A stretch of 64,000 nucleotides of DNA. Source: an uncultured delta proteobacterium. Its GTDB lineage: Bacteria; Desulfobacterota; Binatia; Binatales; Binataceae. The stretch covers positions 1,152,001-1,216,000 of the forward strand of contig CAVRVY010000004.1 of assembly GCA_963724765.1 (NCBI GenBank), in the 5' to 3' direction. Of this stretch, positions 9,166 through 43,624 are shown one piece after another. The notes under the pieces are model-generated. The model was not told the DNA's origin. It worked only from the letters and a program-made list of their open reading frames with translations, and made no database searches. The translations under genes were made by a program, and so were the position numbers. Within the stretch, counting starts at the first letter, position 1. Each line of letters starts with the position of its first letter.

Positions 9166-9175
9166 GGGCCCAAGC

Positions 9176-17439: not shown

Positions 17440-17469
17440 TGTCAGTTCCTCTCCGGCTGTTTTCTCCGG

Positions 17470-18471: not shown

Positions 18472-18498
18472 GCACTACGTCCCCGGGCGTGACGCCGC

Positions 18499-19770
18499 CT
18501 ATTCGTTCGCCCTTCCCCGGCTACCGAAACCGAACATTACCTGCGCCACGCGCCGCATCTGAATCTCCTCCGCGCCTTCGGTAATTCGATAGCGCCGATG
18601 ATGCCGGTAGATGTGCTCGAACGGTTTGTGGCGCGAATAGCCGAGGCCTCCGTGAATCTGCATCGCACGATCGGCGGCCTCGCATACCAGACGGTTCGCG
18701 CGATAGTTGCACATCGCAACCTTGTCCGAGAGTTTCTCCGCCACCTCGGGCTTGGACATCTGGTCCATCTCCCACGCCGTCTTGTGAATCAACGCGCGGA
18801 GCATCGCGGCCTCGGTCTGATGCTCGACCAGCGGCCATTGGATGGCCTGGTTGGTGGCGAGCGGCTTGCCGAAAGGCTTGCGCTCCTTCGCATACTGGAT
18901 GCTTTCGTTGATGCAATATTGCGCGGCGCCGAGCGAGGAGGCCGCCTGCCGGATGCGGTTCTCGTGCACGAAGTGCTGCGCGACTTCCAGACCGTTTTCC
19001 GGATCGCCAAGCGTCGCGTCGCCCGGAACGTACACGTCGGTGAGCGAGATTCGCGGATGGTCTGTCGGCATGTTGAAGGTCCAGAGGTATTCCTCGATTT
19101 TGAAACCTTCGCTGTTGACCGGAACGATGAAGCAGGTGATGCCCTTGGCGCCGCCGTCACGTCCACTGGTCCGGGCAAACACGAAATCGTGCGTCGCGAC
19201 GTGCAGGCCCGTGTTCCAGATTTTTGCTCCGTTGATGCACCAGCCGTCGCCTTCGCGGACGGCGCGCGTCTCCATCCAGGTGGCGTCGGAGCCGTGATTC
19301 GGCTCGGTCAGGCCGAACGCTACGCTAATCGAGCCGTCAAGGATTCGCGGGATGAACGCGTCCTTCTGCTCCCTGGTGCCAAAATCGCGGAACATCAGGA
19401 CCGTCGGCAGGTTGCCCACGATCGAGCTCTCGTTCTGAAGATCGTTGTGCAGGCCCAACCCCTTGGCCGCGAGGTGCTCCCGTATGATCGCCATCGCTAG
19501 GTTGGAGCCGTCCTTGCCGCCGTACTCCCTGGGAAGCGCGAAGCGATAATGCCCCGCCCGGTCGGCGCGCCGGCGCATCTCGGTTAGCAAGTCTTCCCAT
19601 TCATGGCGCGGCAGTCCACCGCGTTCGAAGTCGGTGCGCGCCCATTCGCGGCGATGGTCGAAGAAGCGGATATTGTCGTTTTCGCGTTCGAGCGGCTTGA
19701 TTTCGCGCTCGATGAACTGATCCAGTTCCGCAAGGTAAGCGGCAATTTCTGCTGGAATTTTGAAATCCAC
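18499..19770 (-). CDS. Acyl-CoA dehydrogenase family protein (LvaC/ACAD11-like)
   Basis: FGLTEPNHGSDA, INGAKIW, RKPFGKPL, AMQIHGGLG and RITEGAEEI; GTG start after CAGGAG. Confidence 0.92.
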   Translation of the reverse strand: MDFKIPAEIAAYLAELDQFIEREIKPLERENDNIRFFDHRREWARTDFERGGLPRHEWEDLLTEMRRRADRAGHYRFALPREYGGKDGSNLAMAIIREHLAAKGLGLHNDLQNESSIVGNLPTVLMFRDFGTREQKDAFIPRILDGSISVAFGLTEPNHGSDATWMETRAVREGDGWCINGAKIWNTGLHVATHDFVFARTSGRDGGAKGITCFIVPVNSEGFKIEEYLWTFNMPTDHPRISLTDVYVPGDATLGDPENGLEVAQHFVHENRIRQAASSLGAAQYCINESIQYAKERKPFGKPLATNQAIQWPLVEHQTEAAMLRALIHKTAWEMDQMSKPEVAEKLSDKVAMCNYRANRLVCEAADRAMQIHGGLGYSRHKPFEHIYRHHRRYRITEGAEEIQMRRVAQVMFGFGSRGRANE

Positions 19771-20029
19771 GGCTGCGCTCCTGTAGCAATGTTTCTCGGA
19801 CTGTCCTGATCTCATCCAGTCGCATCCCGGCCACTGGCCAGACGCCCGAGCCTCGCCCAGAGTACGCAAACCGAAAGCCGTCGAACAAACGCTGTGCGCA
19901 AACCCCGGCAGCCTTCGCCGTGCCGCTTCAGGCAACCGATCCGACGCTTTTCTTCCGGTAGCAATTCGGAATGAACTGGACGTATGATGCGCCAAACTGT
20001 TTGCGGCGCCTGCTGGAGGTTAGAACGCG

Positions 20030-21256
20030 ATGAAATTCATGTACTTTTTTCTTCCCACTATTCCCGCCACGCTCGAAGAGCGGCGCGCGCTTCGTCCAAT
20101 CGCGAACCATACTGACCGCTGGCAACGCTTGATCGCAGAAGTGGTGGAGATCGCTCAGCAGGCGGAGGAACTGGGCTTCGATGCGGTGGGCTTCCCGGAG
20201 CATCATCTACATAGCGAAGGAATCGAGGTCGGCAGCCTGCCGCTCCTCACGCAGCACGTGATTCAAAACACCAAGCGTATCAAGGTCGGGCCCATCGGCT
20301 ACGTTCTGCCGGGATGGAACCCGCTTAGGCTGGCGCTCGAAATTGCGTGGCTCGATCAGTTGACCAAGGGCAGAACCTTCGTGGGCCTCGCGCGCGGTTA
20401 CCAGGCCCGCTGGCTCAACCAGATGGCGCAGAAGATCCACGTTGGCGCAACCAGCAGCGACAAGAGCGAAACCGACCGCATCAATCGCGAGGCTTTCGAA
20501 GAGGTTTTCCGCTTTCTCAAGCTGGCATGGGCCGACGAACCCTTTCGCTTCAAAGGCAAGCATTACGAGTATCCCTTTCCGCAGGAGGGAACGCCGTGGC
20601 CGCCGCATGAATTTACGCGCAAGTACGGCTTCCCCGGCGAAGTCGACGAAGAGGGACGCATCCAGAAGATCAGCGTGGTCCCAAAGCCATATCAGAAACC
20701 GCATCCTCCGTTGTTCCAGGCCTTTTCGATGAGCGAGGAGACGGTGCGCTGGTGCGCTCGCGAGGCGATTACACCGACCATCCTGATCTCGCAGCCAGAG
20801 CGACTGCGCAAGCTGGCCGAGGCCTATCAGGAAGAGGCAAAAAAGGCCGGCCGTCAGTTAAAGCTGGGCGATAACATCGGCGTGCTGCGCACGGTGTACA
20901 TGGCGGAAAATCACGCGAAGGCGGAGAAGCTGGCCGAAGCCGGACAATGCGGATTTGCCTTCCGCGAGTTCTTTTACCATTTCGGTTTCTTCGAGGCCTG
21001 GCGCGAGGCCGCTGACGACGTCAAGTACGGCAAAAAGATGCTGCCCGTCGAGGAAGCCACCACCGCGCGCATGGAGCGGGCGGACTTCGCCTACATCGGC
21101 AGTGTCGACGACGTCCGGCGCAAGATCGATGCGCTGGTGGAAAACGCCCATCCGGAATGGTTTGTCTGGCAGGGCGACCAGGGACTGATACCGCTCGCTG
21201 AGGCCAAGCGACAGGTCGAGCTCTTCGGCAAGGAACTGCTGCCGCGCTACAAGTAG
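20030..21256 (+). CDS. LLM-class flavin-dependent oxidoreductase
   Basis: FPEHH, WNPLRLA, LDQLTKGR, PYQKPHPP and ELFGKELLPR; GGAGG RBS. Confidence 0.92.
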   Translation: MKFMYFFLPTIPATLEERRALRPIANHTDRWQRLIAEVVEIAQQAEELGFDAVGFPEHHLHSEGIEVGSLPLLTQHVIQNTKRIKVGPIGYVLPGWNPLRLALEIAWLDQLTKGRTFVGLARGYQARWLNQMAQKIHVGATSSDKSETDRINREAFEEVFRFLKLAWADEPFRFKGKHYEYPFPQEGTPWPPHEFTRKYGFPGEVDEEGRIQKISVVPKPYQKPHPPLFQAFSMSEETVRWCAREAITPTILISQPERLRKLAEAYQEEAKKAGRQLKLGDNIGVLRTVYMAENHAKAEKLAEAGQCGFAFREFFYHFGFFEAWREAADDVKYGKKMLPVEEATTARMERADFAYIGSVDDVRRKIDALVENAHPEWFVWQGDQGLIPLAEAKRQVELFGKELLPRYK

Positions 21257-21315: not shown

Positions 21316-22344
21316 TCACCGCAGATGCGGCAGCACCTCTTCGCCGAAGAGTTGGAGGCATTGCATCGTTTCGGCGCGGCGCGGGCCAAGCGGCACGCGG
21401 CTCCGAATGATTAGGTAGTCGGCGCCTAAAGCGCCGCACCAATATTTGGCGCGTTCGACGCAAGTCTGCGGATCGCCAAGCACCAGGAACTTGCGCATCT
21501 TCGCCACGGTAAAATCCGACTCGCTCTGGAACTCCGGATTCGGCGTGAGCAGGCCGTAGCGGAAGTAGTAGAGCATGTCCTGAACCCACAGTTCGCCGAA
21601 GGTGCGCTCCGCTTCCTCCTGCGTCCGCGCGACCCATCCGTCGCGCATCAGCACGACCATCGGGCGCCGCGCATGCTTCGCCGCCTCGTTGCGATAAATA
21701 TCAGCCTGTGATCGCAGCGTCTCGAACGAATCCCAAAACGGTAGAATCGCCCACGCGTCACCCAGGCGGCCGGCACGCTTGATGGCTTCTGGATAAGCCG
21801 CGCCGATCCAGAGCGGCGGCCCTCCCGCCTGATACGGCTTCGGCGAGAGCAGCACGCTGTCGAAATGATAGCGCTTGCCGTGGAACGAGTACTTGGCGGT
21901 GCTCGACCATGCGCCGCGAAGAATTTCGATCGACTCCTCGAAGCGCGAGAAGCGCTGCTTGTGCGGTTCGCCGAAGAGGTTGAAGTAGTCAGGATGATAG
22001 CCCATCCCCACTCCGAGCCTGACCCGCCCGCGGGAGAGGTTATCGATCATCGCTACGTCTTCTGCCAGATGCATCGGATTGTACAACGGGGGCTGCAAGA
22101 CCATCGTGCCGAGGTCGACCCGCCTGGTCCGCACAGCCAGCGCCGCCATGATGATGAGCGGTGGCGGAAACACGCATTCGCTGCGGGCGTGACGTTCCGG
22201 GAAGAAAACCCCGTCGAAGCCGCTGCGCTCGGCCTGCTCGCCCTCTTCGAGCAGTTGCTCGGCGAAGTCGGCGACCGTCTCGCGTGAGGGAATCGGCTGG
22301 CCGTACGCACCGCTATGCGTGTCGGGCATGTATCCGATCTTCAT
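21316..22344 (-). CDS. LLM-class flavin-dependent oxidoreductase
   Basis: FFPERH, YNPMHLAED, IDNLSRGR, PPLWIG and LFGEEVLPHL; AGGAGG RBS before ATG 22344. Confidence 0.9.
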   Translation of the reverse strand: MKIGYMPDTHSGAYGQPIPSRETVADFAEQLLEEGEQAERSGFDGVFFPERHARSECVFPPPLIIMAALAVRTRRVDLGTMVLQPPLYNPMHLAEDVAMIDNLSRGRVRLGVGMGYHPDYFNLFGEPHKQRFSRFEESIEILRGAWSSTAKYSFHGKRYHFDSVLLSPKPYQAGGPPLWIGAAYPEAIKRAGRLGDAWAILPFWDSFETLRSQADIYRNEAAKHARRPMVVLMRDGWVARTQEEAERTFGELWVQDMLYYFRYGLLTPNPEFQSESDFTVAKMRKFLVLGDPQTCVERAKYWCGALGADYLIIRSRVPLGPRRAETMQCLQLFGEEVLPHLR

Positions 22345-22370
22345 GACCGCCTCCTGCGGGGAGTCTGTTC

Positions 22371-23054
22371 CTACCAGATTCCGGGCAGTAACCGGTAGCG
22401 CACCGCGTCCGCGTAGGTCAAATAGCCCTTGAGGTTGCTTTTCAGAAACCGATCTTCGGCGACGGTGCGGCCGAGGAGCAGTGGCACGCACGCCACGGCG
22501 GGCAGCAACGCGAGCCACGATCCCAGTGCGACGCCGCTCGACAGACAGAACATCAATCCGGCGATGTAGCCGGGATGCCTGACCCAACGATAAGGGCCGC
22601 CGGTTATCAGCACGTGCCCGCGATCCTCCTGCAAGCGGATTATCGAGGAGAAAACCCGATTGGTCCGCATCGCCCAGACGATCAACGCGAGCGCCAGGGC
22701 GAAGATCGCCAGTCCTACAATCTGAAAGTCTTGCGCAACGGAATCGGACCAGTGAAATCGTCCGACATCAAGCCCGGCGATACACCAATGCACCACGGGC
22801 GGAAGGAGCAACGCATAGTATCGATACTTCAGCGGTTGGCCGCCGGGCCGTACCCGTTCGTAGAGCAGTTCCGAATCGATGACACATGCCGCGACGGTGA
22901 ACGACGCGACGCAATCGAGCAGGTACGCCCAAAAGAAAGGGATGTTTAACCGGCCCGCGCATCCAAAAAGCAGCAGTCCGATTAGCGCGCAAAACCCGAG
23001 CGACTGCGAAATCCAGAAAAGCCTGGACGAAGAGAACGAACTCCCCCCGGGCAT
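22371..23054 (-). CDS. Isoprenylcysteine carboxyl methyltransferase (ICMT/PEMT) family membrane protein
   Basis: HVLITGGPYRWVRHPGY, RTVAEDRFL and Y...VRYRLLPGIW. Confidence 0.88.
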   Translation of the reverse strand: MPGGSSFSSSRLFWISQSLGFCALIGLLLFGCAGRLNIPFFWAYLLDCVASFTVAACVIDSELLYERVRPGGQPLKYRYYALLLPPVVHWCIAGLDVGRFHWSDSVAQDFQIVGLAIFALALALIVWAMRTNRVFSSIIRLQEDRGHVLITGGPYRWVRHPGYIAGLMFCLSSGVALGSWLALLPAVACVPLLLGRTVAEDRFLKSNLKGYLTYADAVRYRLLPGIW

Positions 23055-23094
23055 GCCGCGCGATCGTCCCGCACGAATCGACGGTGCGCCGTCG

Positions 23095-24906
23095 TTAGCG
23101 GCCGCCGCCGGCCGCGGCCACCGCCTCGGCCTTGGGACGATCCGCCCGCGTGCGCTTCGTCGCCTCGCCGTCGACCGTCCGCGATTTGGAATCGATGACT
23201 ACTCCGTAGTTGTCACGCGCCTGGGCCGGCGTCACGTAGCCGTCGAGAAAGTCTTCCAGCACCCGTGCCGGCTCGCGCATCATCGGATCGCCCCAGCCGC
23301 CGCCGCCGGTGGTCAGGACTTCGAACCGATCGCCCGCTTCAAGGCGCTTGCCGCGCAGCGGATTGTGCCATACGCCGTCGGGGGAAATGCCGCCGAAGAC
23401 GTCGAGCTTGCCGTCCGCGGTAAGGCGCGAGACCCGCTGCGCCACGCTATCGCCGCCGCCCGCGACTCCCGGAGTGCCCGTCCGTGTGCGCGAGGTCTCG
23501 ATCGATACTTCCGAGGAGCCAAGCATGGTGATCACCATGCGCGAGCCCAGTCCGCCGCGGTTGCGGCCGGCGCCGGCGGAATCGGCGCGCAGGTCAAAGG
23601 CCTCGTAGCGGATCGGGAAGAGCAACTCCGCGACCTCAGCCGACAGATTGGCGCAGTTGCCCAACGGATCCTGGGTCACGTTCATCCCGTCGTGGAGCGG
23701 CGTGCCGCCCCATCCCCCGGCCGGCAGATCCGAGAAGACGAAATTTTCACCGCTTATCGGATCTTTCACAGAGCACACGAACCAGTTGCATTCCGCGAAG
23801 GTCGGCGCGACCGCGCGATCGGGAATCGCATCGGAAAGCGCCTTCCAGATGGCCGCCGTAATCTTGGACGAGGTGAGCGTTGTACAACCGATCGTCGGCG
23901 AGGGCCACTTGGCGTTGAGCCAGCTATGCTCTGGCAGCCGAATCTCGATCGGACGGAAGCTGCCCGCGTTGGCCGGCGCATCCGAGGAGAGAAAAAACTT
24001 CAGTGAGTAATAGACCGCCGAATAGGTATTGGCCATCGGCGAGTTGATTCCGCCGGCGACTGGTTTATCGCTGCCCTCGAAATCCACGATGATGCGATCG
24101 TCCTCGACCTTGAGCGTGACTTCCACGCGCACCGGCTCGTCGGAGATGCCGTCGGTGTCGGCATAGTCGACCGCGTGGTAAGTGCCGTTGGGGATCTCGC
24201 GAATAGCGTTACGCGTGAGGCGCTCGGTATAGTCCAGGACCTCGCGCATGCCCTGGCGCACGGTTTCCATCCCATAGCGGCCGGCGATGCGCTGCAGTTC
24301 CGCCTCGGCCACGCGCAGCGCCGCGAGATGAGCCTGCAAATCGCCCTTGATGTACTGCGGGGTGCGCGTGTTGGCGACGATGATCCGCAGCAGGTCATCG
24401 TTGACGCGATAATTCTCATACATCCGAAGCGGCGGCAGCCGCAGTCCCTCGCCGGCGATGTGCGTTCCGAAGGCCTGACCACCGGCCGCGCCGCCGCCGA
24501 CGTCGGTCCAATGGCCGCGCGAAACCGCAAAGCCCAGGATGTCGCCCTCGAAAAAGACCGGCATCGTGAAGGTCATGTCGTTCAGATGCGTGCCGCCGTC
24601 GTAGGGATCGTTGAGCACGAAGATGTCGCCGGGGCGCAGGCTTTCAAAGCCGAAATGCTTGACCGAGGCCTGTGCCGAAAAATGCATCGCCGCAATATGG
24701 ACCGGGCAATTGGCGGTCTGGCCGAGCAGCTCCAGCTTCTCGTTGTAGATCGCGTTGGAAAAATCGACCATGTCGTAGATGATCGGCGAGAAGGCGGCCT
24801 TCTGCAGCACCGTGCTCATCCTGCCGCAGACGTATTCGAAGGAGCTGCGCAGGACTTCGAAGGTTACCGGGTCAAGCCGCTTGCCATTTTCGTTGGAGGT
24901 GTTCAT
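23095..24906 (-). CDS. Hydantoinase B/5-oxoprolinase family subunit
   Basis: LDPVTFEV, NDPYDGGTHLND, GHWTDVGG, GAGRNRGG and TGGGGWGDP; AAGGAG RBS. Confidence 0.93.
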   Translation of the reverse strand: MNTSNENGKRLDPVTFEVLRSSFEYVCGRMSTVLQKAAFSPIIYDMVDFSNAIYNEKLELLGQTANCPVHIAAMHFSAQASVKHFGFESLRPGDIFVLNDPYDGGTHLNDMTFTMPVFFEGDILGFAVSRGHWTDVGGGAAGGQAFGTHIAGEGLRLPPLRMYENYRVNDDLLRIIVANTRTPQYIKGDLQAHLAALRVAEAELQRIAGRYGMETVRQGMREVLDYTERLTRNAIREIPNGTYHAVDYADTDGISDEPVRVEVTLKVEDDRIIVDFEGSDKPVAGGINSPMANTYSAVYYSLKFFLSSDAPANAGSFRPIEIRLPEHSWLNAKWPSPTIGCTTLTSSKITAAIWKALSDAIPDRAVAPTFAECNWFVCSVKDPISGENFVFSDLPAGGWGGTPLHDGMNVTQDPLGNCANLSAEVAELLFPIRYEAFDLRADSAGAGRNRGGLGSRMVITMLGSSEVSIETSRTRTGTPGVAGGGDSVAQRVSRLTADGKLDVFGGISPDGVWHNPLRGKRLEAGDRFEVLTTGGGGWGDPMMREPARVLEDFLDGYVTPAQARDNYGVVIDSKSRTVDGEATKRTRADRPKAEAVAAAGGGR

Positions 24907-24915
24907 CGGCACTCC

Positions 24916-26955
24916 TTACACGGTTATGGACAGATTGCCCTCAGCGTCGACCATCGCCGAACTTGCGGGCGCGAGCGCGGTACATGAATGTTCGTGCTCG
25001 ATTATCGCGGGTCCTTCAATCTTGTGTCCGGGGCGCAAGGCGGCGGCATCGTAGAGCGCGGTCCGGATCTTCTTGCCGTCGAAAATCACGTCTCGCTCGC
25101 CCTTGACCACGTTTCCAGTATCGCTTTTCCGGGCGCCCGCGGGAACAGCCTGCGAATTGCCCGATCCGTGCCCGGCCACCACGCCCAGCGCGGTCACGCC
25201 CAGGCTGACGAAGGCCGGCGCGAACTCCTCCGAGGCGACGCCGTACTCGCGCAAATGCGACTTGTGAAAATTTCCCCTGACCTCGTCGAGCGCCGATCCG
25301 ATATGGTCCGGGATTGGCGTCAGGACCTCGTAGCTCTGACCGACGTAACGCATCTGCGCGGTGCGCTTGAGCCTCACCGCGGCAAGCGCGATTCCTTCGC
25401 GCGACAAAAGCGCGCGGCCTTCATCCTCGAGCGTGCGATAAAGCTGCTCGAGTTGCTCCGGGTTGGTATCCGCGACCGGTGAATAAAAAAACCGCTCCAG
25501 GTCGTGGCGCAAATCCATCCGGGTCGCGCCGTAGGCCGACGCGACACCGGCGTACGCAGGCACGATGACCGTGGGAATTCCGAGCGAGCGAGCGATCCAG
25601 CACGCGTGCATCGCACCCGCGCCGCCCGAACTGGCAAGCGCGAAATCGCGCGGGTCGCGTCCGCGCTCGGCCAGGGCGAGACGAATCGCCTGGGCCATGT
25701 TTTCCGTGCAGATCGACACGATACCTTCGGCCGCCGCGATCGGCTCGAGTCCCACACGCTTGCCGATCTCGGCGACCGCGCGATGGGCGGCGTCACGGTC
25801 GAGAACCATCTTACCGCCGAGCGTCGGCTCCAGCCGGCCGAGCAGCAGATTGGCGTCGGTGACGGTTGCGTGCCTGGCACCTTTGCCATAGCAGGCCGGG
25901 CCAGGGTCGGATCCGGCGCTGCGCGGTCCCACCCGCAACGATCCGCCCTCGTCAATCCAGGCTATCGAGCCGCCGCCCGCGCCGATGCTCCTGATGTCGA
26001 GCATCGGAGTGATGATCGGCATCTCCCAGCGCAGTTCGTAGGAGTTGGTGATAAGCCCCTCGCCGTCTTCGACCACCGCAACGTCGAACGAGGTGCCACC
26101 CATGTCGGTGTGGATGACCTTCGCGGCCTCACGCATCGAGCGCGAGAGCGCGCTGGCGTAGGCCACACCGCCGGCCGGCCCTGATTCGATCAGCTCCTCG
26201 GGCCGTTCGATCGCGGAAGCGACGCCCATCACGCCGCCGTTGGACTTGATGATGAGCAGCGAGCCCTTGAAACCCCATTGGGCGAGTTCGTGTTCGAGGT
26301 CCTGGAGATAACCGGCCATTACCGGCAGCAGAACGGCGCGTACTACCGTGGTCATGAAACGGCCCAGCTCGCGGAACTGCGGGCGGGTCTCGCTGGAAAT
26401 TGCGACCCGCACTTTCGGCGCGGCTTCGCGTATCAGTTCGCGCACCCGCCGTTCATGGCGGCCGTCGACGTAGGCGTTAATGAAGCAGACCGCGATTGTT
26501 TCGGCGCCCTGTGCGAGCGCGTCCGCGATCACCTCGCGCGCCGCCTTTTCGTCCAGCGGCCGGACCGTCTCGCCCTGGGCCGACATCCGCTCGGTGAGCG
26601 CGAACCGCATGCGCCGCGGGATGAGCGGCCGCTCCTTGACCTGGTATGGATCGTAAAGGCGTTCGCGGCGCTGGCGGCCAATCTCGATCGTGTCGCGAAA
26701 CCCTTCCGTGGTGATCATCGCCGCGGTGGGAAAGGTGCGCTCGATCAAAGCGTTGGTCGCGGTCGTGCTGCCGTGCACTATTTCCGCGACCTTGGCCGGG
26801 TTGATGCCCGTTTGCGCGAGCGCGCCGAGCACGCTTTCGACCAGCCGATGCTTGGTTCCGAGAACTTTGGCCGTGCGGGTTTCGCCGTTCTCTTCATTGA
26901 CCGCGAAGAGATCGGTGAAGGTTCCGCCAACATCTATTCCTATTCGCCAGGACAT
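24916..26955 (-). CDS. Hydantoinase A/5-oxoprolinase family subunit (ATP-binding)
   Basis: GIDVGGTFTD, HGSTTATNA, SGPAGG, DMGGTSFD, GAGGGS and GPACYG. Confidence 0.94.
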   Translation of the reverse strand: MSWRIGIDVGGTFTDLFAVNEENGETRTAKVLGTKHRLVESVLGALAQTGINPAKVAEIVHGSTTATNALIERTFPTAAMITTEGFRDTIEIGRQRRERLYDPYQVKERPLIPRRMRFALTERMSAQGETVRPLDEKAAREVIADALAQGAETIAVCFINAYVDGRHERRVRELIREAAPKVRVAISSETRPQFRELGRFMTTVVRAVLLPVMAGYLQDLEHELAQWGFKGSLLIIKSNGGVMGVASAIERPEELIESGPAGGVAYASALSRSMREAAKVIHTDMGGTSFDVAVVEDGEGLITNSYELRWEMPIITPMLDIRSIGAGGGSIAWIDEGGSLRVGPRSAGSDPGPACYGKGARHATVTDANLLLGRLEPTLGGKMVLDRDAAHRAVAEIGKRVGLEPIAAAEGIVSICTENMAQAIRLALAERGRDPRDFALASSGGAGAMHACWIARSLGIPTVIVPAYAGVASAYGATRMDLRHDLERFFYSPVADTNPEQLEQLYRTLEDEGRALLSREGIALAAVRLKRTAQMRYVGQSYEVLTPIPDHIGSALDEVRGNFHKSHLREYGVASEEFAPAFVSLGVTALGVVAGHGSGNSQAVPAGARKSDTGNVVKGERDVIFDGKKIRTALYDAAALRPGHKIEGPAIIEHEHSCTALAPASSAMVDAEGNLSITV

Positions 26956-27004
26956 CGCCGCCGATGCTAGCCGTCCACACGATCCAGGTCAAAGGAAACG
27001 GGGC

Positions 27005-29041
27005 TCAGGCCGAGGCCACCGGGTCCACGGTAACCTCCACGGCGTGCACGCTGGTGCTTTCCCCCATGTCCGACTTGCGCCCGGGATTCAGCACGTTCAC
27101 GTTTCTTTGCCCGGTTTCCTGCTTGGGCCAGCGGCCCTTGTACGACAGCGCGACGCCGCGAGGCAGCGTCTCGGTCAAGGTGACGCGCATCACCAGGCGG
27201 CCGGTTTCATTCGCCACCAACGCCTGGTCGCCCTCGGCGAGACCCCGACCGGCGGCGTCGGCCGGATGCATCGCGATCGCGGCCGGGCCCACGTGGGCCA
27301 CTATCTTGGCCACGTTGGAGAAGCTGTCGTTCAGACTCCATTGCGACGATGGCGACAACAATCGCAGCCGCCCCGACGCCGGTCGGGGATCGGCGAGCGG
27401 CTGCGGAACTCGCGGATGGCCGTCGGCCGCGGCGCTCTCCGAGGCGATTTCGATACGTCCGCTGGGAGTAGGAAAGTTGAGGTCGCGAAATTGGATCGCC
27501 GGCTCGGCGGGAAGGTGCACGGGCGTTCGTGCGGCGAACGCGCGGAAATCCCCGTCGAGCTTTGCACGCTTTAGCAGCGTGACGATCATTTCGGCATCGC
27601 TCTCATGCAGTTCGGGCTCGGTAAAGCCCATCGCGCGGGCCAGACGGCGGAATATTTCCGAATTGGGCAGCGCCTCGCCGATCGGCTCTGCCGCCTTGAC
27701 CTGCGCCGCTAGCGTCAAATGAAAGTAGCTCGCCACGAGATCGTCGAATTCCAGGAAGCTCGCCGCCGGCAGTACAAAGTCGGCAAAGTCGGTGGTGTCG
27801 GTCGGGAACAGATCGAGCACGACGGTCAGCAGGTCTTCCCGCACAAGCGCCTTGCGCAGGCGCTGCTGCTGCGGGTTGGACGCCGCGATATTGATGTTCC
27901 AGCAGATCAAGGCCTGCGCGCGCGCCGGGTCTTCAAGACAGGCCGCGAGGTCCATGTGGCTGATTGACGGAGCGCCGCCCTTGCTCAGATGCGGCGCGGT
28001 CAGATATTCGGCGTCGATCCCGCGTTGCGCCATGTCGAAGTTCAAGTACACGAAACCGGTGCCGGGCTTGCCGATATTTCCGGTGACCGCGGGAAGAATC
28101 GAGCACGCGCGCATCACGTTGCCGCCGGTCGGCTGACGCTGGAGCGCCTGGCCCATCCACAGCAGCGACGGCCCCCGGCCATACAGTTGCGCAACCTCCT
28201 CGATCAGGTGGGCCGGCACGCCGGTCTGAGCTGCGCCCCAAGCGGGAGTACATGGCGCCAGCATCGGTTCGAGTTCGTTCCATCCCACGGTGTGTTGTGC
28301 GACGAAGTCGCGATCGACCAGCCCTTCCCGCTGGATGACGTGCAGCATCGAAAACGCCAGCGCCGCGTCGCTCCCCGGGAACGGTTGAAGATGGATATCC
28401 GCGGCCTTAGCGGTCGGCGTGCGCACTGGGTCGATTACGACCACCTTGCCCGGCAGCTTCTCGATCCAATGCTCCTGCACGTGCGGACCCGAAGCTGAAG
28501 GATTGGCGCCCCATACGATGATACAGGCGGCGGCGTCGCCGATGCGCGGATCGAAGCCGCTCACCGAAGTTCCATAAACGTAGTGCAGGGCCACGTGGCC
28601 GGCCATGTTGCAAATCGTGTCGGGACTGACCTCGGTCGCGCCGAGCCGGTTGAAGAAACGCGTCGGAAAGAGGTATGCGATGAGCGAGATGGTGCCGCTG
28701 TAGTGCGTGTTGAGGATGGCCTGCGGCCCGGCGCTCGCGACGATCCGCTTGAGCCGGTCGGCGATCGCGGACAGCGCAACGTCCCATGACACCGGCTCGA
28801 AGCGGCCCTCGCCCTTGCCTCCGACGCGGCGGAGCGGCCGAGTCAGACGCGCACGCGGGTCCAGCCACTCGTTGTTGTAGCCAATCGAGCATTTGGGGCA
28901 CAACTGGCCCTGGCTTACGAAATGCGCGGGATCGCCGCGTACCGACTCGATCGCGCCGTTGCGCTTATGAACCGCAACACCGCAGGTATCGTAGCAATCG
29001 CGCGGGCAGGTGGTGCGAACGATTTCCTCGAGCTCGCTCAT
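27005..29041 (-). CDS. Cytoplasmic molybdopterin (Mo-bisPGD) oxidoreductase with N-terminal 4Fe-4S site
   Basis: CPRDCYDTC...CPK, RLTRPLRR, putative Mo ligand in TICNMAG, ADFVLPAA and C-terminal MHPADA; no Tat signal; start reassigned to ATG 29041. Confidence 0.92.
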   Translation of the reverse strand: MSELEEIVRTTCPRDCYDTCGVAVHKRNGAIESVRGDPAHFVSQGQLCPKCSIGYNNEWLDPRARLTRPLRRVGGKGEGRFEPVSWDVALSAIADRLKRIVASAGPQAILNTHYSGTISLIAYLFPTRFFNRLGATEVSPDTICNMAGHVALHYVYGTSVSGFDPRIGDAAACIIVWGANPSASGPHVQEHWIEKLPGKVVVIDPVRTPTAKAADIHLQPFPGSDAALAFSMLHVIQREGLVDRDFVAQHTVGWNELEPMLAPCTPAWGAAQTGVPAHLIEEVAQLYGRGPSLLWMGQALQRQPTGGNVMRACSILPAVTGNIGKPGTGFVYLNFDMAQRGIDAEYLTAPHLSKGGAPSISHMDLAACLEDPARAQALICWNINIAASNPQQQRLRKALVREDLLTVVLDLFPTDTTDFADFVLPAASFLEFDDLVASYFHLTLAAQVKAAEPIGEALPNSEIFRRLARAMGFTEPELHESDAEMIVTLLKRAKLDGDFRAFAARTPVHLPAEPAIQFRDLNFPTPSGRIEIASESAAADGHPRVPQPLADPRPASGRLRLLSPSSQWSLNDSFSNVAKIVAHVGPAAIAMHPADAAGRGLAEGDQALVANETGRLVMRVTLTETLPRGVALSYKGRWPKQETGQRNVNVLNPGRKSDMGESTSVHAVEVTVDPVASA

Positions 29042-29055
29042 CGTGAACGCTCCTG

Positions 29056-30483
29056 TTAATTCGGCGCATCGCCCGTGGCTTGCGCGACTTCCGATGCGGG
29101 CTGATTCGCGCCGGCGAATCCGGCAATCCGTTTGCCCCGGGCGCGGATCCAGAACAACCCTATTATCATGTACGCAAGGAATATGTATGGGAAAACGCCA
29201 TACGGCCAAGCAGGGATTGGATATACGCTCCCGACCGCAGGAAACAGCAGCAACAGCGCCGCCGCGCCGGCGAGCGCATAATCGCGGCCGCGAACGATGC
29301 CTTCGTGCTTCAGATATGCGGGCGCCGCGATTGAAACCAGGAAGTATGAGCCGATGAATCCGAACGCGGTCAGAGTTCCGGCGTAACCGACGATGTCGAA
29401 CGGCTGCGTCCCCGGCACCAGCAGCATCGCAGCCGGCACCACGAAGAGCAGCGCGCCCATTATGGTTACCGCGACGTGCGGCGTTTCGTGGGTGTCGTGC
29501 GCGGCGCCGACGGATGAAGGGAGAAGCCCGTGATGGCTCAGCGAGTAGAGAATCCGCGCGCCCGAATTGAGACACGCCAGCCCGCCCGAGAAGCAGCTTA
29601 CGATGACTGCCAGGGACAACGGCACCACCAGCGCGGGCATCCTCACCACCTGGGCCAGGATGTTGAGCGGCGTATCGACCTTATCCAGCGGCGTCTTGTA
29701 ACCGATGAAGCCGAGTATCTCGGTGTAGGAAACCAGCACGAAAAAGAGACCCGTCAGCACCAGGTTTACGATCAGCACGCGCGGAATCGTAACCAGCGGC
29801 TCCTTCGCCTCATCGCCGAAGGCGGTGGCGTTCTCGAAGCCTACCAGACTGAAGACCGCGATATTCACGCCCATCGCGATTCCGGACAGCGAGGATCCTT
29901 TCAGGGTGAGCTGCGCGGTATCCAGCGCGAATTTGTGTTTGGACAGCACCACGGCACAGAGGATCAGAATCATCGTTATCGAGACGGCTTCGAACACCAG
30001 CATCACGATGCTCGAAATCTGTACGTCCTCGTAAGCGAGGAACCAGATTATGAAGCACAGGATCGCAAACATCAGCATGTTCGGTATCTGGAACCCGAGC
30101 ATCCCGAGCAGCGCGTTGCCAAAGATCGCGAAGCCCGCCACCCCGGCGATACCGTCGAAGAGGTAAGCCCAGACCAGGCACCATCCCGAGACCCCGCCGG
30201 TCGTCGCACCGAGTCCCATCACCGTGTAGGTGTGCATGGAACCGGTCGCGGCCGAACGGCGCGCGAACTGGTTCAGATTGAAGGTCACGAACAGCAGCAT
30301 GATCGTTCCGAAGAGGTAAGCGAGCCAGCTTGCATTGCCGGCGTTGGCGTATATCAGCGGAACGATCAGCGCCGCGACGATGGTCGGCCCGATATTCGCC
30401 ACCGAGATCGCCGAGAGCTCGGTGAAGTTGAGGCATCCGGCGCGTAATGCTCCCGCCGCGGCCTTTTTCGAGGAGGTTTCCAT
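29056..30483 (-). CDS. APC-family amino acid/amine permease
   Basis: ANIGPT, FSLVGFE, GDEAKEP, ARILYSL and HETPHVA; about 12 TM helices. Confidence 0.9.
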   Translation of the reverse strand: METSSKKAAAGALRAGCLNFTELSAISVANIGPTIVAALIVPLIYANAGNASWLAYLFGTIMLLFVTFNLNQFARRSAATGSMHTYTVMGLGATTGGVSGWCLVWAYLFDGIAGVAGFAIFGNALLGMLGFQIPNMLMFAILCFIIWFLAYEDVQISSIVMLVFEAVSITMILILCAVVLSKHKFALDTAQLTLKGSSLSGIAMGVNIAVFSLVGFENATAFGDEAKEPLVTIPRVLIVNLVLTGLFFVLVSYTEILGFIGYKTPLDKVDTPLNILAQVVRMPALVVPLSLAVIVSCFSGGLACLNSGARILYSLSHHGLLPSSVGAAHDTHETPHVAVTIMGALLFVVPAAMLLVPGTQPFDIVGYAGTLTAFGFIGSYFLVSIAAPAYLKHEGIVRGRDYALAGAAALLLLFPAVGSVYPIPAWPYGVFPYIFLAYMIIGLFWIRARGKRIAGFAGANQPASEVAQATGDAPN

Positions 30484-30510
30484 AGGACCGTACAATCTAG
30501 TTTCGCGCGA

Positions 30511-30554
30511 TGGCCCGTGCAAAGAGCCACTTTGCTGCGATCTTATAGAGCCAC
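30511..30554. promoter_or_regulatory. Putative MocR operator: AGAGCCAC direct repeat (30523 and 30547) plus inverted-type TGGCCC (30511)
   Basis: Seen in the divergent intergenic region; MocR regulators typically bind combined direct and inverted short repeats. Confidence 0.45.
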
Positions 30555-30662
30555 CTAGCGCATGCGGCCGACCAGGTTGTAATCGGCCTCATCGTGTAAT
30601 TGACTGGCAGCGGCGGGGTTTTGCGCTCGAATTTGCATTCGGGGGCGCCGCCGATATCGGCA

Positions 30663-32147
30663 ATGTTTCTCAAGCTCGATCAGCAAGGGTTGCTCTACAG
30701 CCAGGTTTACCGGGCGCTCCGCCGGCAGATCCTCAGCGGGAGGATGCGTCCGGGCTCGCGCCTGCCGTCGACCAGATGGCTCGCCTCGGAACTTGGGATT
30801 TCGCGCAACACCGCGCTGCTCGCGTACGAGCAGCTAATCGCCGAAGGATACCTGACCGCGGGCTCGCACGCCGGCACGAAGGTGGCCTCGGAACTTCCCG
30901 AGAATCTCACTTTCGTCGCGCCCGACCGGGTCTCTGGCAAACACGCAATCCCGTCCGCGGTCCGGCTATCCAGCTTCGCCTCCGTGATTGCCGACGATCC
31001 GGTCAGTGCGTCATTGATTCGGGAGATACTGCTGCGCCCCGCGTTGCCCTACGATTTTCGCTACGGCCGTCCTTCGTTTGCCGATTTCCCGCATGCGACT
31101 TGGGATCGCACGTTGGCGCGCCGCGCAAGGCGCCGTTCGATTGGCGACCTCGACTACGGAGCACCGGAAGGAATGGCGCCGCTGCGCAAGGAGTTGGCGG
31201 AATATCTGCGCCGCGCACGCGCGGTCAACTGCTCGCCCGAGCAAGTTATTGTTGTGAGCGGCTCACAACAGGCCATCGACCTCGCCGTGTGTGTCCTGAT
31301 CGATCGCGGCGACCGCGTGGTGCTCGAGAATCCGCACTACTTTCCCGCGCGCAACGTATCGCGCGCGGCCGGCGCATCGATCGAATTCGTCGACGTCGAT
31401 GACCAGGGGATGAAGATCGGCGACCTGGCGGCGAAAAGAGGACGGGTCAAGTTGGTCTTCGTCACCCCATCGCATCAGTTTCCCACCGGCGCGCTGATGC
31501 CGCTTGGGCGCAGGCTGGAGCTGCTGGCCTGGGCAAATCGTACCGGCGCGGTCGTTTTCGAGGACGACTACGACAGCGAGTATCGCTATTCCGGCCGGCC
31601 GGTCGAAGCGCTCCAGGCGCTCGACGAGAGCGGCCGGGTGCTGTATTCGGGCACCTTTTCAAAGACGATGTTTCCCGGTTTGCGGCTCGGCTACCTGGTA
31701 GTCCCCAATCAGCTCGTCGATATCTTCCGCTCGGTCAAGTCTTTGCTCGACGCCGCGTGCCCCACGAACACGCAGCTTGCGCTCGCGGAATTCATGCGCG
31801 ACGGCCACTTCGAGCGGCATCTGCGCCGATCGAATGCGCGCAACGCCGAGCGGCGTGCCGTGTTGCTGGAGTCGATCGGCCGCCACCTCGGCGGACGGGT
31901 CGAGGTGTCGGGCGCCGAAGGTGGGCTGCACATTCTGCTCTGGCTGAGCGACATTTCGATGCGCCGCAGCGCCGACGTTGTCGCGCGCGCCGAGCAAGCG
32001 GGGGTGGGTGTTTACCCGGTCGGCCCATTCTACGCGAAGCCGCCCAGGCGCACGGGCCTGTTGCTCGGCTATACTTCGCTCACGGCAAGGGAAATCGCGG
32101 AAGGAATTCGACGGCTGGCGTCAGTGGTCGCCGCGATGAGCGGCTAG
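30663..32147 (+). CDS. MocR/GabR-family regulator (GntR HTH + PLP aminotransferase-like domain)
   Basis: RLPSTRWLASELGISRNT, VTPSHQFPTG, EDDYDSEY and GTFSK...PGLRLGY. Confidence 0.95.
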   Translation: MFLKLDQQGLLYSQVYRALRRQILSGRMRPGSRLPSTRWLASELGISRNTALLAYEQLIAEGYLTAGSHAGTKVASELPENLTFVAPDRVSGKHAIPSAVRLSSFASVIADDPVSASLIREILLRPALPYDFRYGRPSFADFPHATWDRTLARRARRRSIGDLDYGAPEGMAPLRKELAEYLRRARAVNCSPEQVIVVSGSQQAIDLAVCVLIDRGDRVVLENPHYFPARNVSRAAGASIEFVDVDDQGMKIGDLAAKRGRVKLVFVTPSHQFPTGALMPLGRRLELLAWANRTGAVVFEDDYDSEYRYSGRPVEALQALDESGRVLYSGTFSKTMFPGLRLGYLVVPNQLVDIFRSVKSLLDAACPTNTQLALAEFMRDGHFERHLRRSNARNAERRAVLLESIGRHLGGRVEVSGAEGGLHILLWLSDISMRRSADVVARAEQAGVGVYPVGPFYAKPPRRTGLLLGYTSLTAREIAEGIRRLASVVAAMSG

Positions 32148-32255
32148 ATGTGCCGATTAAATGCCATTGGAATAAATGCGATTGATTGATCGATCGCACG
32201 ATTGAAGGGACTCGACCGTGCGGCCAGGAGCTAATAGAGTTACCCTTCTTCAGCA

Positions 32256-33236
32256 ATGAACCAGACAATCAAAGAACCGTTAGCGGAGAACTCGGCGATG
32301 ATCGGCAAGTACATGCGCTACCCTTTCGCCGAGGGCAACTACAGTCTTGCGCTCGGCCTGGTGCCGATGGGCGAGGAGACCTGGCTCGACATCGACGAGC
32401 ACTATGCCGATGAGATGCGCGAAAAGGCGCGCCGCCTGCGCGATGAATACGCGATGGTGTTCTGCGCGATGTCGGGCAGTGAGCGCGGCCAGGCCGAAGT
32501 GCTGGAGATGCTGCTGGAGCATCTGGCCACCTATTATCCGAATTTGTTTCGCATCACGCGCGCCGCGGCTTCGCGGGGCGCGGACGACGGCATCGAGCCC
32601 GACGCCCGCATCGAAAATCTTATCAATGGCGAAATCTGGCGCGTGGGCGACTTCAGCGCCGCGCCGCTCGACCTGGCCGGCCGCCTGGTTCAGGAAGACC
32701 TCTGCCTCATGAGCCCTGACGGCAAGGGCACTTACGTGCTCAGCGCCGGCTCAGTCTGCTTTCCATTGCGCTGGGAGCTGACGGAAAAATTCGGGTTGCC
32801 GATGGCCGGTATTCATCAGGCCGTTCCCGGCTACGATGAGAAGCTCGCGGCCCCGTCCGACCGCTACATGGTGGGACTCAAGGCGCACAAGCCCTCGTGG
32901 CGGTCCAACTGGAGCATCGTCGACGCACCGGACCTCTATTTGAAGCAGCGCCGGTTCAGGCAGGACCGGAACAGCGAGATCACGGCCGTGAACGCCGGCC
33001 ACAAGCTGTGGATTAGATCGGAGCGGCAAAGCCTGCGAAGATTGCCGCGCTCGGGCGATGTGATTTTCACGATCCGAACGTACATTCGGCCACTGTCGGT
33101 GCTGGAGAGCCTTCCGTCCGTGGCGCGAGGCTTAGCTCAGGCGCTCGACAAACTTCCCGCCGAGATGCGCAGCTACAAGAATCAGCTTCCAATCCGCGAC
33201 GCCCTGCTCGCCTACCTAAGCCGTATCAGCGGCTGA
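32256..33236 (+). CDS. DUF3445 heme-dependent oxidative N-demethylase alpha-subunit-like protein
   Basis: LVQEDLCL, CFPLRW...KFG, IHQAVPG, WRSNW, RSERQSLRRLPRSG..IFTIRTY. Confidence 0.85.
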   Translation: MNQTIKEPLAENSAMIGKYMRYPFAEGNYSLALGLVPMGEETWLDIDEHYADEMREKARRLRDEYAMVFCAMSGSERGQAEVLEMLLEHLATYYPNLFRITRAAASRGADDGIEPDARIENLINGEIWRVGDFSAAPLDLAGRLVQEDLCLMSPDGKGTYVLSAGSVCFPLRWELTEKFGLPMAGIHQAVPGYDEKLAAPSDRYMVGLKAHKPSWRSNWSIVDAPDLYLKQRRFRQDRNSEITAVNAGHKLWIRSERQSLRRLPRSGDVIFTIRTYIRPLSVLESLPSVARGLAQALDKLPAEMRSYKNQLPIRDALLAYLSRISG

Positions 33237-34724: not shown

Positions 34725-34830
34725 ATGACCGTCATCTGGTATTTTTTGCGCATTTGTGACAAATGCGTCCTTCGACAGACGCTCGCAAGGTGTCACATCC
34801 GCAAGGTATCAATCCGATCGAGGTGCTCTT

Positions 34831-35862
34831 ATGCCAACCGATACGCAAAATCCGCGACTGCGCTTTGGCCTCTGGGTCGATTTCCGTAATCCGCCCCAGT
34901 GGCGCCGTCCTTATAAGGACCTTTACGCGGAGACGCTGGAAATGATCGCCTGGGCCGAGAGTATCGGCTACCACGACGTCTGGCTGAGCGAGCATCACTT
35001 CGTTGACGACGGCTACTCGCCTGCGCAGATGCCGATCGCGGCGGCGATTGCGGTCAAGACGAAAAAAATCAGGATCGGCACCTCGGTCGTGCTGCTGCCA
35101 ATGTACGATCCGGTGCGGCTGGCGGAGGATGGCGCGACCGTGGACATCCTTTCGGACGGCCGCTTCGAGCTCGGTGCAGGCCTGGGCTACCGGGCCGGGG
35201 AGTTCGAGGGACTGGGACTGAAATACAAGGAGCGCGCCGGACGGATGAACGAGGCGCTCGAGATCATTCGCCGGCTGTGGGAGGGCGAAACGCTCACTTT
35301 TCACGGCAAGCACTTCCATATTGAAGGAGCACGGGTCTCGCCCGAACCGGTGCAGAAGCCACGCCCTCCGATTTGGGTCGGTGGCTTTGCGGCGGCGGCG
35401 ACCCGGCGCGCGGCGCGCTACGGCGACGGTTTTATCGCGATCAATGAAGTGCGGGCCTCCTACGACAATTACGTGGCCGAGTTGCGCGCGCTGGGCAAAG
35501 ATCCCGCCAAGGCCCACGTCATCGCCGGGCACGTCTGGCTGGTGGTGGCGAACGATCCCGACAAGACCTGGCGCGAACTCGCGCCGCACGTGCTCTATCA
35601 GATCAATCTCTACGCCAAGTGGATGGGTGATTCGGGACAGGACTTCTTTCCGCACCTGAGTTCGGTGGAAGAGCTGCGCAAAAGCGGCTTGCTCAACGTG
35701 GCCACCCCCGCGCAGGCGGTTGAGCTGATTCGCGACTATGCCTCGCGCATCCCGATCGAGCGCTACTACACCTGGACTTGTCCGCCGGGTTATCCGCCGA
35801 AAAAGATGTACGAGCACCTGGAGCTGTTCGCGAGCAAGGTGATGCCGCATTTTCGCGGCTGA
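34831..35862 (+). CDS. LLM-class flavin-dependent oxidoreductase
   Basis: WLSEHHF, YDPVRLAED, PVQKPRPPIWVGG and LELFASKVMPHF. Confidence 0.92.
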   Translation: MPTDTQNPRLRFGLWVDFRNPPQWRRPYKDLYAETLEMIAWAESIGYHDVWLSEHHFVDDGYSPAQMPIAAAIAVKTKKIRIGTSVVLLPMYDPVRLAEDGATVDILSDGRFELGAGLGYRAGEFEGLGLKYKERAGRMNEALEIIRRLWEGETLTFHGKHFHIEGARVSPEPVQKPRPPIWVGGFAAAATRRAARYGDGFIAINEVRASYDNYVAELRALGKDPAKAHVIAGHVWLVVANDPDKTWRELAPHVLYQINLYAKWMGDSGQDFFPHLSSVEELRKSGLLNVATPAQAVELIRDYASRIPIERYYTWTCPPGYPPKKMYEHLELFASKVMPHFRG

Positions 35863-43588: not shown

Positions 43589-43624
43589 TCGTAGCGGAGG
43601 AGGAGGAACCCGCGAGGACCGAAA

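Follow-up and report, generated by a model that had tools for sequence, protein, structure and literature searches.

A stand-alone DUF3445 haem protein beside an ATP-dependent lactamase of the hydantoinase family: a candidate lactam pathway essentially limited to one genus of Binataceae

Introduction

The closest described systems to the locus treated here are the nmpABCDEF clusters of Alicycliphilus BQ1 and Paracoccus ZQW-1, in which nmpA/B are reported to encode an N-methylhydantoin amidohydrolase, nmpC an amino acid oxidase and nmpF a succinate-semialdehyde dehydrogenase (PMC12866759; PMC6987047). N-methylpyrrolidone (NMP) is reported to induce this cluster 102-690 fold in Paracoccus sp. 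ZQW-1; there is also an nmpB knockout (PMC12866759; PMC6987047). In the same strain NMP is reported to be oxidised to N-methylsuccinimide before the ring is opened, by an enzyme that is left unnamed (PMC12866759). We analysed a locus with a related lactamase in an uncultured delta proteobacterium of the family Binataceae (class Binatia). The window, that is, the whole stretch of DNA analysed, comprises 64,000 nucleotides (G000:C4:1152001-1216000) of a 5.4 Mb genome in 4 contigs. The locus encodes a hydantoinase/oxoprolinase A/B pair (HyuAB), a DUF3445 haem protein, a molybdenum- or tungsten-dependent enzyme of the bis-pyranopterin guanine dinucleotide superfamily (Mo/W-bisPGD enzyme, here also Mo enzyme), an APC-superfamily permease, an ICMT/PEMT-like membrane protein, a luciferase-like oxidoreductase (LLM) and a MocR-type regulator.

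In ATP-dependent lactamases the A subunit is the ATP-binding part and the B subunit its catalytic partner. Binatia are abundant in soils and peats, uncultured, and carry many unexplained oxidoreductases; the DNA sequencing runs that contain 21-51% of the sampled words are labelled as soil, peat and freshwater-sediment metagenomes. An earlier, sequence-only reading of this DNA saw in the eight genes one candidate pathway of a combination unknown among described pathways. The combination does have kin among these, since the core of the locus resembles an nmp cluster.

Results

Natural variants define a core of DUF3445 and HyuAB

The stable core of the locus consists of the DUF3445 gene and HyuAB, which the Mo enzyme joins only in genus g1. 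This conclusion follows from natural variants: two divergent genomes (G523 and G466) and a series of genome and metagenome loci. Synteny was assessed over 33 species-representative loci with a Mo enzyme related to that of the window, a homologue being counted at E 1e-10 or better with half of the query covered. Genes for DUF3445, the Mo enzyme, HyuA, HyuB, the ICMT-like protein and LLM occur in the window's order at 12 of the 33 loci. All 12 belong to Binataceae at 86-92% identity and have flanking genes in common as well, so their synteny largely reflects vertical inheritance. The other 21 encode Mo orthologues at 52-90% identity and come from bins labelled Actinomycetes, Gaiellales, Solirubrobacterales, Alphaproteobacteria, Rokubacteria, Thermomicrobiales, Acidobacteriota and, in two cases, delta proteobacterium. 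At these thresholds the seven other genes have no homologue in the 21 loci, some of them on short contigs; the exceptions are LLM paralogues at 23-36% identity (L017, L029) and an acyl-CoA dehydrogenase at 29% (L018).

Rearranged loci are more informative. The most divergent g1 genome (G523) has DUF3445 divergent from a Mo-HyuA-HyuB row that is followed by a different LLM gene, and it has no permease, MocR or ICMT-like gene. In a genome of genus g263 (G466), which has no Mo enzyme, DUF3445 (67% identity) and HyuA-HyuB are direct neighbours in divergent orientation; an LLM, an MBL-fold gene and a class-III aminotransferase are close by. Adjacency of DUF3445 and HyuAB has thus been kept in two genera through several rearrangements. 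Among 23 metagenome contigs with DUF3445, 14 span the interval from DUF3445 to the Mo gene: MocR is intact in three of these, and the permease is intact in six, partial or split in four and absent in four. HyuA and HyuB are both present in all nine metagenome loci that reach that far. At the syntenic genome loci MocR is found in 6/12 and the permease in 10/12. The idea of a conserved eight-gene pathway unit therefore fails outside one genus; what holds together is DUF3445 and HyuAB, with the Mo enzyme in g1. The synteny check suggested along with it gave a divided answer: DUF3445 and HyuAB recur in two genera, but MocR, permease and ICMT-like gene come and go. One g1 genome (G519) lacks both HyuB and the Mo enzyme and has an ICMT-like gene (69%) directly upstream of acyl-CoA dehydrogenase/phosphotransferase genes; compared as an empty site, it gave no clean island borders, its flanks being rearranged.

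Family-level tallies cover 165 Binataceae genomes, including six flagged as unpublished that are mostly negatives; two of these six contribute ICMT paralogue matches at 31-36%. A HyuB orthologue is present in 19 of the 165 genomes (15/16 in g1, 1/10 in g263 and 2/3 in g265). The Mo orthologue (E 1e-200 or better) is present in 17, which cover the same 15 g1 genomes as HyuB; one g265 genome has it at 57% identity on another contig. ICMT-like proteins of at least 66% identity occur in 16 genomes, exclusively of g1, and the remaining ICMT matches (104 genomes have any) are paralogues at 28-42%. In the 401-genome phylum sample, HyuB above 50% identity was found only in the window genome and in G110. 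DUF3445 was found in 58 genomes of the 401-genome class sample: all ten of g1, one g268 genome at 66%, and 43 of 55 in another family at 40-49%. The module is accessory and essentially limited to one genus.

The hydantoinase A/B pair

The window pair has the family's three A domains and a full Hydantoinase_B domain, with the two genes 3 bp apart. The N-terminal and central domains of HyuA extend over nearly full profiles, and Hydant_A_C is matched at profile positions 12-183 of 193. With 477.1 bits for the CapA model (NF050156) and 310.9 bits for the CapB model (NF050157), both far under the equivalog cut-off of 1000, the pair falls outside the CapAB subfamily. Among solved structures in the PDB, HyuA matches N-methylhydantoinase 7hk5 with 396 bits and the caprolactamase alpha subunit with 318 bits.

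Nearer relatives are found on plasmids of cultured organisms. HyuB has matches at 55-60% identity in 14 plasmid records, and the next tier does not exceed 36.5%. The pair on a Paracoccus pantotrophus plasmid (54% identity for HyuA, 60% for HyuB) heads six co-directional genes, namely HyuA, HyuB, an FAD-binding oxidoreductase, a cupin, a PucR regulator and succinate-semialdehyde dehydrogenase. On plasmids of Agrobacterium, P. amygdali and Natrinema, HyuAB likewise accompanies an FAD-binding oxidoreductase and, in several cases, succinate-semialdehyde dehydrogenase, a cupin and PucR. We placed HyuB in a quick maximum-likelihood tree, with SH-aLRT (approximate likelihood ratio test) support only and with long paralogue branches that make its root uncertain. 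The window HyuB lies in an 8-row Binataceae clade within a 25-row subfamily (SH-aLRT 99, long stem) that also includes the nmp-like trio, and the paralogues lie outside. Apart from the gene of this pair, the genome contains six Hydantoinase_B genes, of which one, an open frame of 1275 aa, is of the fused type. These six genes, and the restriction of the HyuB orthologue to 19 of 165 genomes, agree with the earlier view of a specialised lactamase type rather than a housekeeping 5-oxoprolinase.

Some HyuB relatives have unusual surroundings or architectures. In two g265 loci (L063 1216-10400 and L064 3458-12610), HyuAB is part of an operon that also encodes the whole PxpABC set (LamB/YcsF, CT_C_D, CT_A_B), an aminotransferase of class III and an LLM, in the order LLM-PxpA-aminotransferase III-PxpB-PxpC-HyuA-HyuB and then nitrile hydratase, so that two different ATP-dependent lactamase systems stand together. 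Five metagenomic relatives (P0160, P0161, P0162, P0165 and P0176; 61-63% identity, 909-945 aa) carry a C-terminal ABC-transporter ATPase domain (PF00005) and are lactamase-ATPase fusions. One in-frame TAG each interrupts a HyuB relative in G862 (C13:373092-374876) and the Mo gene of G534 (C5:139787-141817); these may be assembly errors or pseudogenes.

The DUF3445 haem protein

The DUF3445 protein scores 251.4 bits with PF11927 (cut-off 25) and matches the catalytic subunit of the haem-dependent oxidative N-demethylase HODM (5lte) at E 1.5e-26 over residues 15-324. Forty-three columns are invariant with Dmm-type proteins, H89 and H187 among them, and a 16-residue insertion of the Dmm-type proteins is missing. 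Canonical DUF3445 genes, on Acinetobacter and Rhizobium plasmids, are flanked by a DmmA-family gene, a PDR/VanB reductase and an aminomethyltransferase. The presumed substrate of the window protein is an N-methyl amino acid and not dimethylamine. As the cluster has no flavin amine oxidase, we propose that DUF3445 could fill the amine-oxidising role of NmpC. A literature search on DUF3445 returned no paper dealing with its function. Kinship with piperazate synthase or NohD was considered and dropped, those enzymes being placed in PF04299.

A second conserved context for stand-alone DUF3445 exists in another Binatia family, where the protein (42-44% identity) is paired with a MatE transporter near HPPK (L099 7138-9473 and L100 8611-11120). 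A DAO-type FAD oxidoreductase lies near the DUF3445-MatE pair in L099 and also in L103.

The Mo/W-bisPGD enzyme

The Mo enzyme has the domains Molybdop_Fe4S4, Molybdopterin and Molydop_binding in the order of its superfamily. Its N-terminus, MSELEEIVRTTCPRDCYDTCG, holds a 4Fe-4S motif (CxxCxxxC at residues 12-19) and shows no visible twin-arginine leader; the enzyme is classed as cytoplasmic. The Cys of TICNMAGH aligns with the ligand Cys of FdhF (7qv7) and of PhsA/Psr (2vpw). In the alignment with 7qv7 the residue after the ligand Cys is Asn in the window enzyme and His in FdhF, and the position of the formate dehydrogenase active-site Arg is likewise Asn ('yln' against 'plR' in FdhF). Formate dehydrogenases have a His after the (Se)Cys ligand and a conserved active-site Arg; dimethyl sulfoxide, trimethylamine N-oxide and biotin-sulfoxide reductases (DorA, TorA, BisC) have Ser as Mo ligand. 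NCBIfam scores are 224.7 bits for Fdh-alpha (cut-off 666), 182.8 for bisC_fam (1017) and 97-105 for TorA (909-1465). With its Cys ligand and two Asn, the protein is neither a formate dehydrogenase, which the two Asn and the low Fdh-alpha score exclude, nor a Ser-type S- or N-oxide reductase, which the Cys position and the BisC and TorA scores rule out. N-oxide reduction, one of the two reactions suggested for it in the sequence-only reading, is not favoured on account of the same Cys.

All NCBIfam models stay well under their cut-offs. The best matches are to Cys-ligated Mo/W-bisPGD enzymes at 125-171 bits, none of the characterised ones being close, and a search of the ESM Atlas returned generic names only. 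Orthologues at 52-75% identity occur across at least five phyla. No partner recurs among 38 Pfam-annotated neighbours at eight solitary Mo loci. Five genomes with a solitary Mo gene were searched further: subfamily HyuB is present in one (on another contig), and any DUF3445 in one. On this basis the Mo enzyme family is widespread, usually solitary and uncharacterised. The contribution of the enzyme in g1 is probably a redox or hydration reaction with the lactam compound or with a related one. A Mo paralogue (41% identity) of the window genome (G000:C1:441079-444609; L002, L008) lies about 0.7 kb from another LLM, and an LLM is likewise near the Mo orthologue in L017 and L029; with 92 LLM genes per genome such neighbourhood may be chance.

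MocR, its candidate control region and the permease

The regulator has the MocR/GabR architecture, an N-terminal GntR winged helix-turn-helix (wHTH) followed by a C-terminal fold-type I aminotransferase-like domain, and scores 434 bits with the NCBIfam PdxR model (cut-off 320), 424 with MocR (650) and 313 with GabR (600). Upstream of the permease, the direct repeats GTGGCTCT at 30554..30547 and 30530..30523 lie 24 nt apart. Immediately downstream of them is a promoter-like TTGCAC-N17-TAGATT (30522..30494), with 10 nt between its end and the permease ATG. The window and 4/6 MocR-bearing loci have exact copies of both the proximal repeat and this promoter-like site; of the deviating two, L010 has a proximal repeat one base short and L016 a changed -10-like hexamer. 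Most MocR-bearing loci have a distal repeat that differs at one or two bases. Where MocR is missing, L011, L012 and L014 keep the promoter-like site and have lost the distal repeat, and in L030 and L033 the repeats are degenerate too.

GabR-type regulators activate through direct repeats. The pattern is compatible with MocR as an activator at these putative binding sites, and the two repeats, the distal one lost where MocR is lost, make the predicted MocR control of the operon probable. MocR itself is dispensable: at least half of the sister loci have lost it.

The permease scores below the cut-off of every NCBIfam family. In sister loci this gene is intact, split, truncated or absent; like MocR, it is dispensable. 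By identity to the window protein, the permeases of sister loci form two groups (63-73% and 83-91%), which suggests two alleles or a replacement. L028 has an extra gene between MocR and permease, with a duplicated repeat/promoter-like region (7600-8600), and L033 retains the C-terminal part of the permease frame as a truncated remnant (9060-10020).

The ICMT-like gene and LLM

The ICMT-like protein is, by its Pfam matches PF04191 and PF04140, both over their cut-offs, a member of the ICMT/PEMT superfamily; the NCBIfam equivalog NF040696 for protein-S-isoprenylcysteine O-methyltransferase reaches 45.4 bits against a cut-off of 160. Its gene can be separated from the lactamase genes in both directions, being missing in G523 with HyuAB and present in G519 without HyuAB. 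It probably stands outside the pathway, for which the sequence-only reading had listed it.

LLM scores 157.2 bits with TIGR03619, the model of an F420-dependent LLM subfamily (cut-off 166.9). CofD and CofH exceed their cut-offs in the genome, so F420 can be made, and LLM is probably F420- or FMN-dependent. Some LLM paralogue adjoins HyuAB in four arrangements, the paralogues in G523, g265 and G110 being others than the window's. LLM may be a pathway member, which is plausible if weakly supported, given 92 LLM genes in the genome, roughly one per 59 kb. Four lie in the window (14001-15017, 20030-21256, 21316-22344 and 34756-35862); at 34756-35862 (+) the real gene is the LLM (PF00296, 212 bits) and not the overlapping 372-aa minus-strand open reading frame (ORF).

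Gene layout and surroundings

Gene calls combine an ORF list with Pfam and NCBIfam profile scans, and start sites come from reading the DNA. Coordinates are collected in Table 1. Every Pfam match is far over its gathering score, so the gene identities are not due to chance. The sequence-only reading had named all eight genes on their correct strands and had placed the end of the locus correctly at 33236. It had also put the operon gaps at about 10-50 bp; we measure 14, 49, 3, 40 and 26 bp in the order from permease to LLM.

Table 1. Genes and candidate control region of the locus (positions in the window)
Feature	Position	Strand	Remarks
LLM (luciferase-like oxidoreductase), last operon gene	21316..22344	-	342 aa; PF00296 203 bits
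ICMT/PEMT-like membrane protein	22371..23054	-	227 aa; PF04191 39.9 bits, PF04140 37.2 bits
Hydantoinase B	23095..24912	-	605 aa; PF02538 matched 1-519 of 519
Hydantoinase/oxoprolinase A	24916..26955	-	679 aa; three Pfam domains
Mo/W-bisPGD enzyme	27005..29041	-	678 aa; Molybdop_Fe4S4, Molybdopterin, Molydop_binding
APC-superfamily permease	29056..30483	-	475 aa from ATG 30483; PF00324/PF13520
Candidate control region (repeats and promoter-like site)	30494..30554	-	
MocR-type regulator	30663..32147	+	Pfam GntR and Aminotran_1_2
Stand-alone DUF3445 haem protein, HODM alpha-like	32256..33236	+	326 aa; PF11927

The Mo enzyme starts at ATG 29041 behind AGGAG (678 aa, replacing an 856-aa ORF) and LLM at ATG 22344. 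The permease likely starts at ATG 30483 (the longest ORF begins at 30522) and MocR at ATG 30663 (longest ORF from 30600). A single strand and gaps of 3-49 bp suggest one transcript for the six-gene minus-strand operon. The LLM stop coincides with a terminator-like hairpin, and the Mo-hyuA gap contains a promoter-like site; the scans for terminators (11 against 9.9 in shuffles) and promoters (3 against 2.3) did not exceed the shuffled sequences.

The surroundings of the locus include, at a distance of 5-15 kb, two amidase-signature genes (38292-39677 and 47749-49125, both minus strand) and a class-III aminotransferase (46390-47718, plus strand). An acyl-CoA dehydrogenase, an APH-type phosphotransferase and a DUF6285 gene stand in tandem at 17083-19995 (-), a trio that is kept in sister genomes. 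A row of PrkA kinase, DUF444 and SpoVR-like genes at 41538-46356 (+) is what we take to be a stress module of the YeaG-YeaH-YcgB type.

Discussion

A proposed route and its weak points

We propose, with a probability of about 40%, that the cluster works by lactam opening followed by DUF3445-dependent N-demethylation. The substrate would be a small ring amide, with an N-alkyl gamma-lactam or imide of the N-methylpyrrolidone/2-pyrrolidone type as the likeliest candidate, and would diffuse into the cell or be carried in by the APC permease, which is optional. HyuAB would spend ATP on opening the ring to an N-methyl omega-amino acid, which DUF3445 would then demethylate oxidatively; the related nmp clusters of Proteobacteria and haloarchaea have a flavin amine oxidase for the oxidation of the amine. 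In loci with MocR, the primary amino acid product is a plausible effector that would bind through pyridoxal phosphate, the operon being activated via the two direct repeats. In genus g1 the Cys-ligated Mo/W-bisPGD enzyme would have been recruited between DUF3445 and hyuA. The order of lactam opening and N-methyl amine oxidation had already been put forward from the sequence, and it fits the context of the nearest HyuAB relatives, the nmp-like clusters. We infer the substrate class and the roles of DUF3445 and MocR by such comparison; gene content, spacing, phyletic pattern and the division into core and accessory genes are observations.

Several findings weigh against this proposal. On the side of the lactamase, the window HyuB clade stands beside the nmp-like trio as its sister group rather than within it, and the same subfamily has other contexts: BKACE, SDR and ABC transporter genes in Mesorhizobium, and in Phaeobacter an ABC transporter and a large FAD oxidoreductase. 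The substrate of HyuAB may for these reasons differ from that of the nmp-like clusters, which are themselves so named by gene order and genus, not by NmpA/B sequence. The scanned ORFs of the 64-kb window include neither a succinate-semialdehyde dehydrogenase nor an FAD amine oxidase, and the window's sole class-III aminotransferase is 13 kb from the cluster. On the side of the haem protein, identity to Dmm-type proteins is about 27-29%, with 28-29% for those of Acinetobacter and Rhizobium plasmids. No DmmA-family, PDR/VanB or aminomethyltransferase gene stands beside DUF3445 in the window or in Binatia relatives, the rest of the genome being unsearched. DUF3445 relatives also occur apart from HyuAB, beside a P450 gene in G493 (64-66%) and beside MatE in family f4, and in G110 DUF3445 and HyuAB are both present about 2 Mb apart. 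Finally, the DUF3445-HyuAB adjacency may be one inherited arrangement and so count only once, since the two genera are sister lineages in the HyuB tree.

Alternative explanations

The main rival, which we consider doubtful, is a genus-specific mosaic island without a common substrate, in which a solitary Mo enzyme with a task of its own, a lactamase pair, an ICMT-like gene belonging to the acyl-CoA dehydrogenase operon and one LLM out of many are neighbours by chance and would share a transcript for convenience alone. Mo orthologues elsewhere indeed have no conserved neighbours, HyuB and DUF3445 each being absent from 4/5 of the genomes searched. G519 keeps the ICMT-like gene beside the acyl-CoA dehydrogenase and phosphotransferase genes without HyuAB, LLM genes number 92, and MocR and the permease have been lost repeatedly. 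Such a patchwork is hard to square with the single strand and the 3-49 bp gaps, which suggest one transcript, or with the constant company of DUF3445, Mo enzyme, HyuA and HyuB in all g1 variants seen, the most divergent included; within the family, moreover, Mo and HyuB occur in the same 15 g1 genomes. The opposite extreme is a full linear route after the sequence-only reading, in which APC import, an obligatory Mo-dependent oxidation or N-oxide reduction, lactam opening, N-demethylation and steps by the ICMT-like protein and LLM all belong together under MocR control. Gene order, operon spacing, the MocR repeats and the position of the Mo gene between DUF3445 and hyuA in all g1 variants would suit it, as would the oxidation of NMP to N-methylsuccinimide before opening that is reported for ZQW-1 (PMC12866759). 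We regard it as improbable, because many sister loci lack the permease and MocR or have them in degraded form, G466 has DUF3445 and HyuAB without the Mo enzyme, the Mo ligand position has Cys and not Ser, and the ICMT-like gene is separable. About as improbable is a reading with the partner-less DUF3445 as the N-dealkylating enzyme of a lactam pathway and the Mo/W enzyme in a new ring reaction, for example a water-dependent hydroxylation beside the ring nitrogen before ATP-dependent opening; if it is true, two orphan groups of enzymes would gain their first functions.

A route of the creatinine/N-methylhydantoin type would take the A/B product to be N-carbamoylsarcosine, which an amidase would convert to sarcosine for demethylation by DUF3445. 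The higher score of HyuA with N-methylhydantoinase than with caprolactamase speaks for it, as do the two amidase genes of the window and the fact that sarcosine is a secondary amine of the HODM-type substrate class. Those amidases, however, are 5-15 kb off and outside the conserved core, the operon has no creatinine deaminase gene, and closer HyuAB relatives (54-60%) accompany succinate-semialdehyde dehydrogenase, which points to C4 lactams; we give this route a small chance. A housekeeping 5-oxoprolinase with unrelated neighbours is scarcely credible: the family includes such enzymes by Pfam names, but the orthologue is confined to 19 of 165 family genomes, six other Hydantoinase_B genes are at hand, and in g265 the pair stands beside a separate PxpABC set.

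Should lactam opening followed by DUF3445-dependent N-demethylation prove correct, ATP-dependent lactam opening could pair with a haem N-demethylase in place of a flavin oxidase. The partner-less DUF3445 protein would have a first role, and there would be a handle on a widespread Mo/W enzyme family of no known function. Mild opening of stable gamma- and delta-lactams, and of N-methyl lactams, is wanted for solvent waste treatment and in nylon-4 and nylon-5 chemistry. Should the proposal fail, the locus would be another uncharacterised catabolic island among many in this genome.

Comparison with known systems

GabR/MocR regulators combine a wHTH with an aminotransferase fold, are divergent from their operon and have two direct repeats; the window shows a like arrangement, with its repeats upstream of the promoter-like site, and the window protein exceeds the PdxR cut-off, though there are no vitamin B6 genes in its context. 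FdhF, PsrA/PhsA and acetylene hydratase share domain order, N-terminal 4Fe-4S motif and ligand Cys with the Mo enzyme, which differs from FdhF-type proteins by Asn in place of both His and Arg and by having no adjacent partner-subunit gene. In HODM and DmmABCD the catalytic alpha subunit is homologous to the window DUF3445, with PF11927 over the full length, but these systems have adjacent partner genes, whereas the window protein stands alone.

For the lactamase, the caprolactamase CapAB (Pseudomonas jessenii, PDB 6yra), the valerolactamase OplBA and the ATP-dependent N-methylhydantoinase 7hk5 share family and two-subunit build with the window pair and provide its best NCBIfam and PDB matches, yet the pair belongs to a different subfamily. 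The nmp clusters differ in having the FAD amino-acid oxidase NmpC, a cupin, PucR and the succinate-semialdehyde dehydrogenase NmpF, none of which is in the window cluster, and the window cluster in turn has the stand-alone DUF3445, the Mo/W-bisPGD enzyme, MocR and the APC permease. What the two have in common is a two-subunit lactamase of the same subfamily (A 54%, B 57-60%) and, if our proposal holds, the logic of ring opening followed by oxidative removal of the N-substituent. The best explanation for the cluster is that it represents a genus-specific variant of the ATP-dependent lactam pathways.

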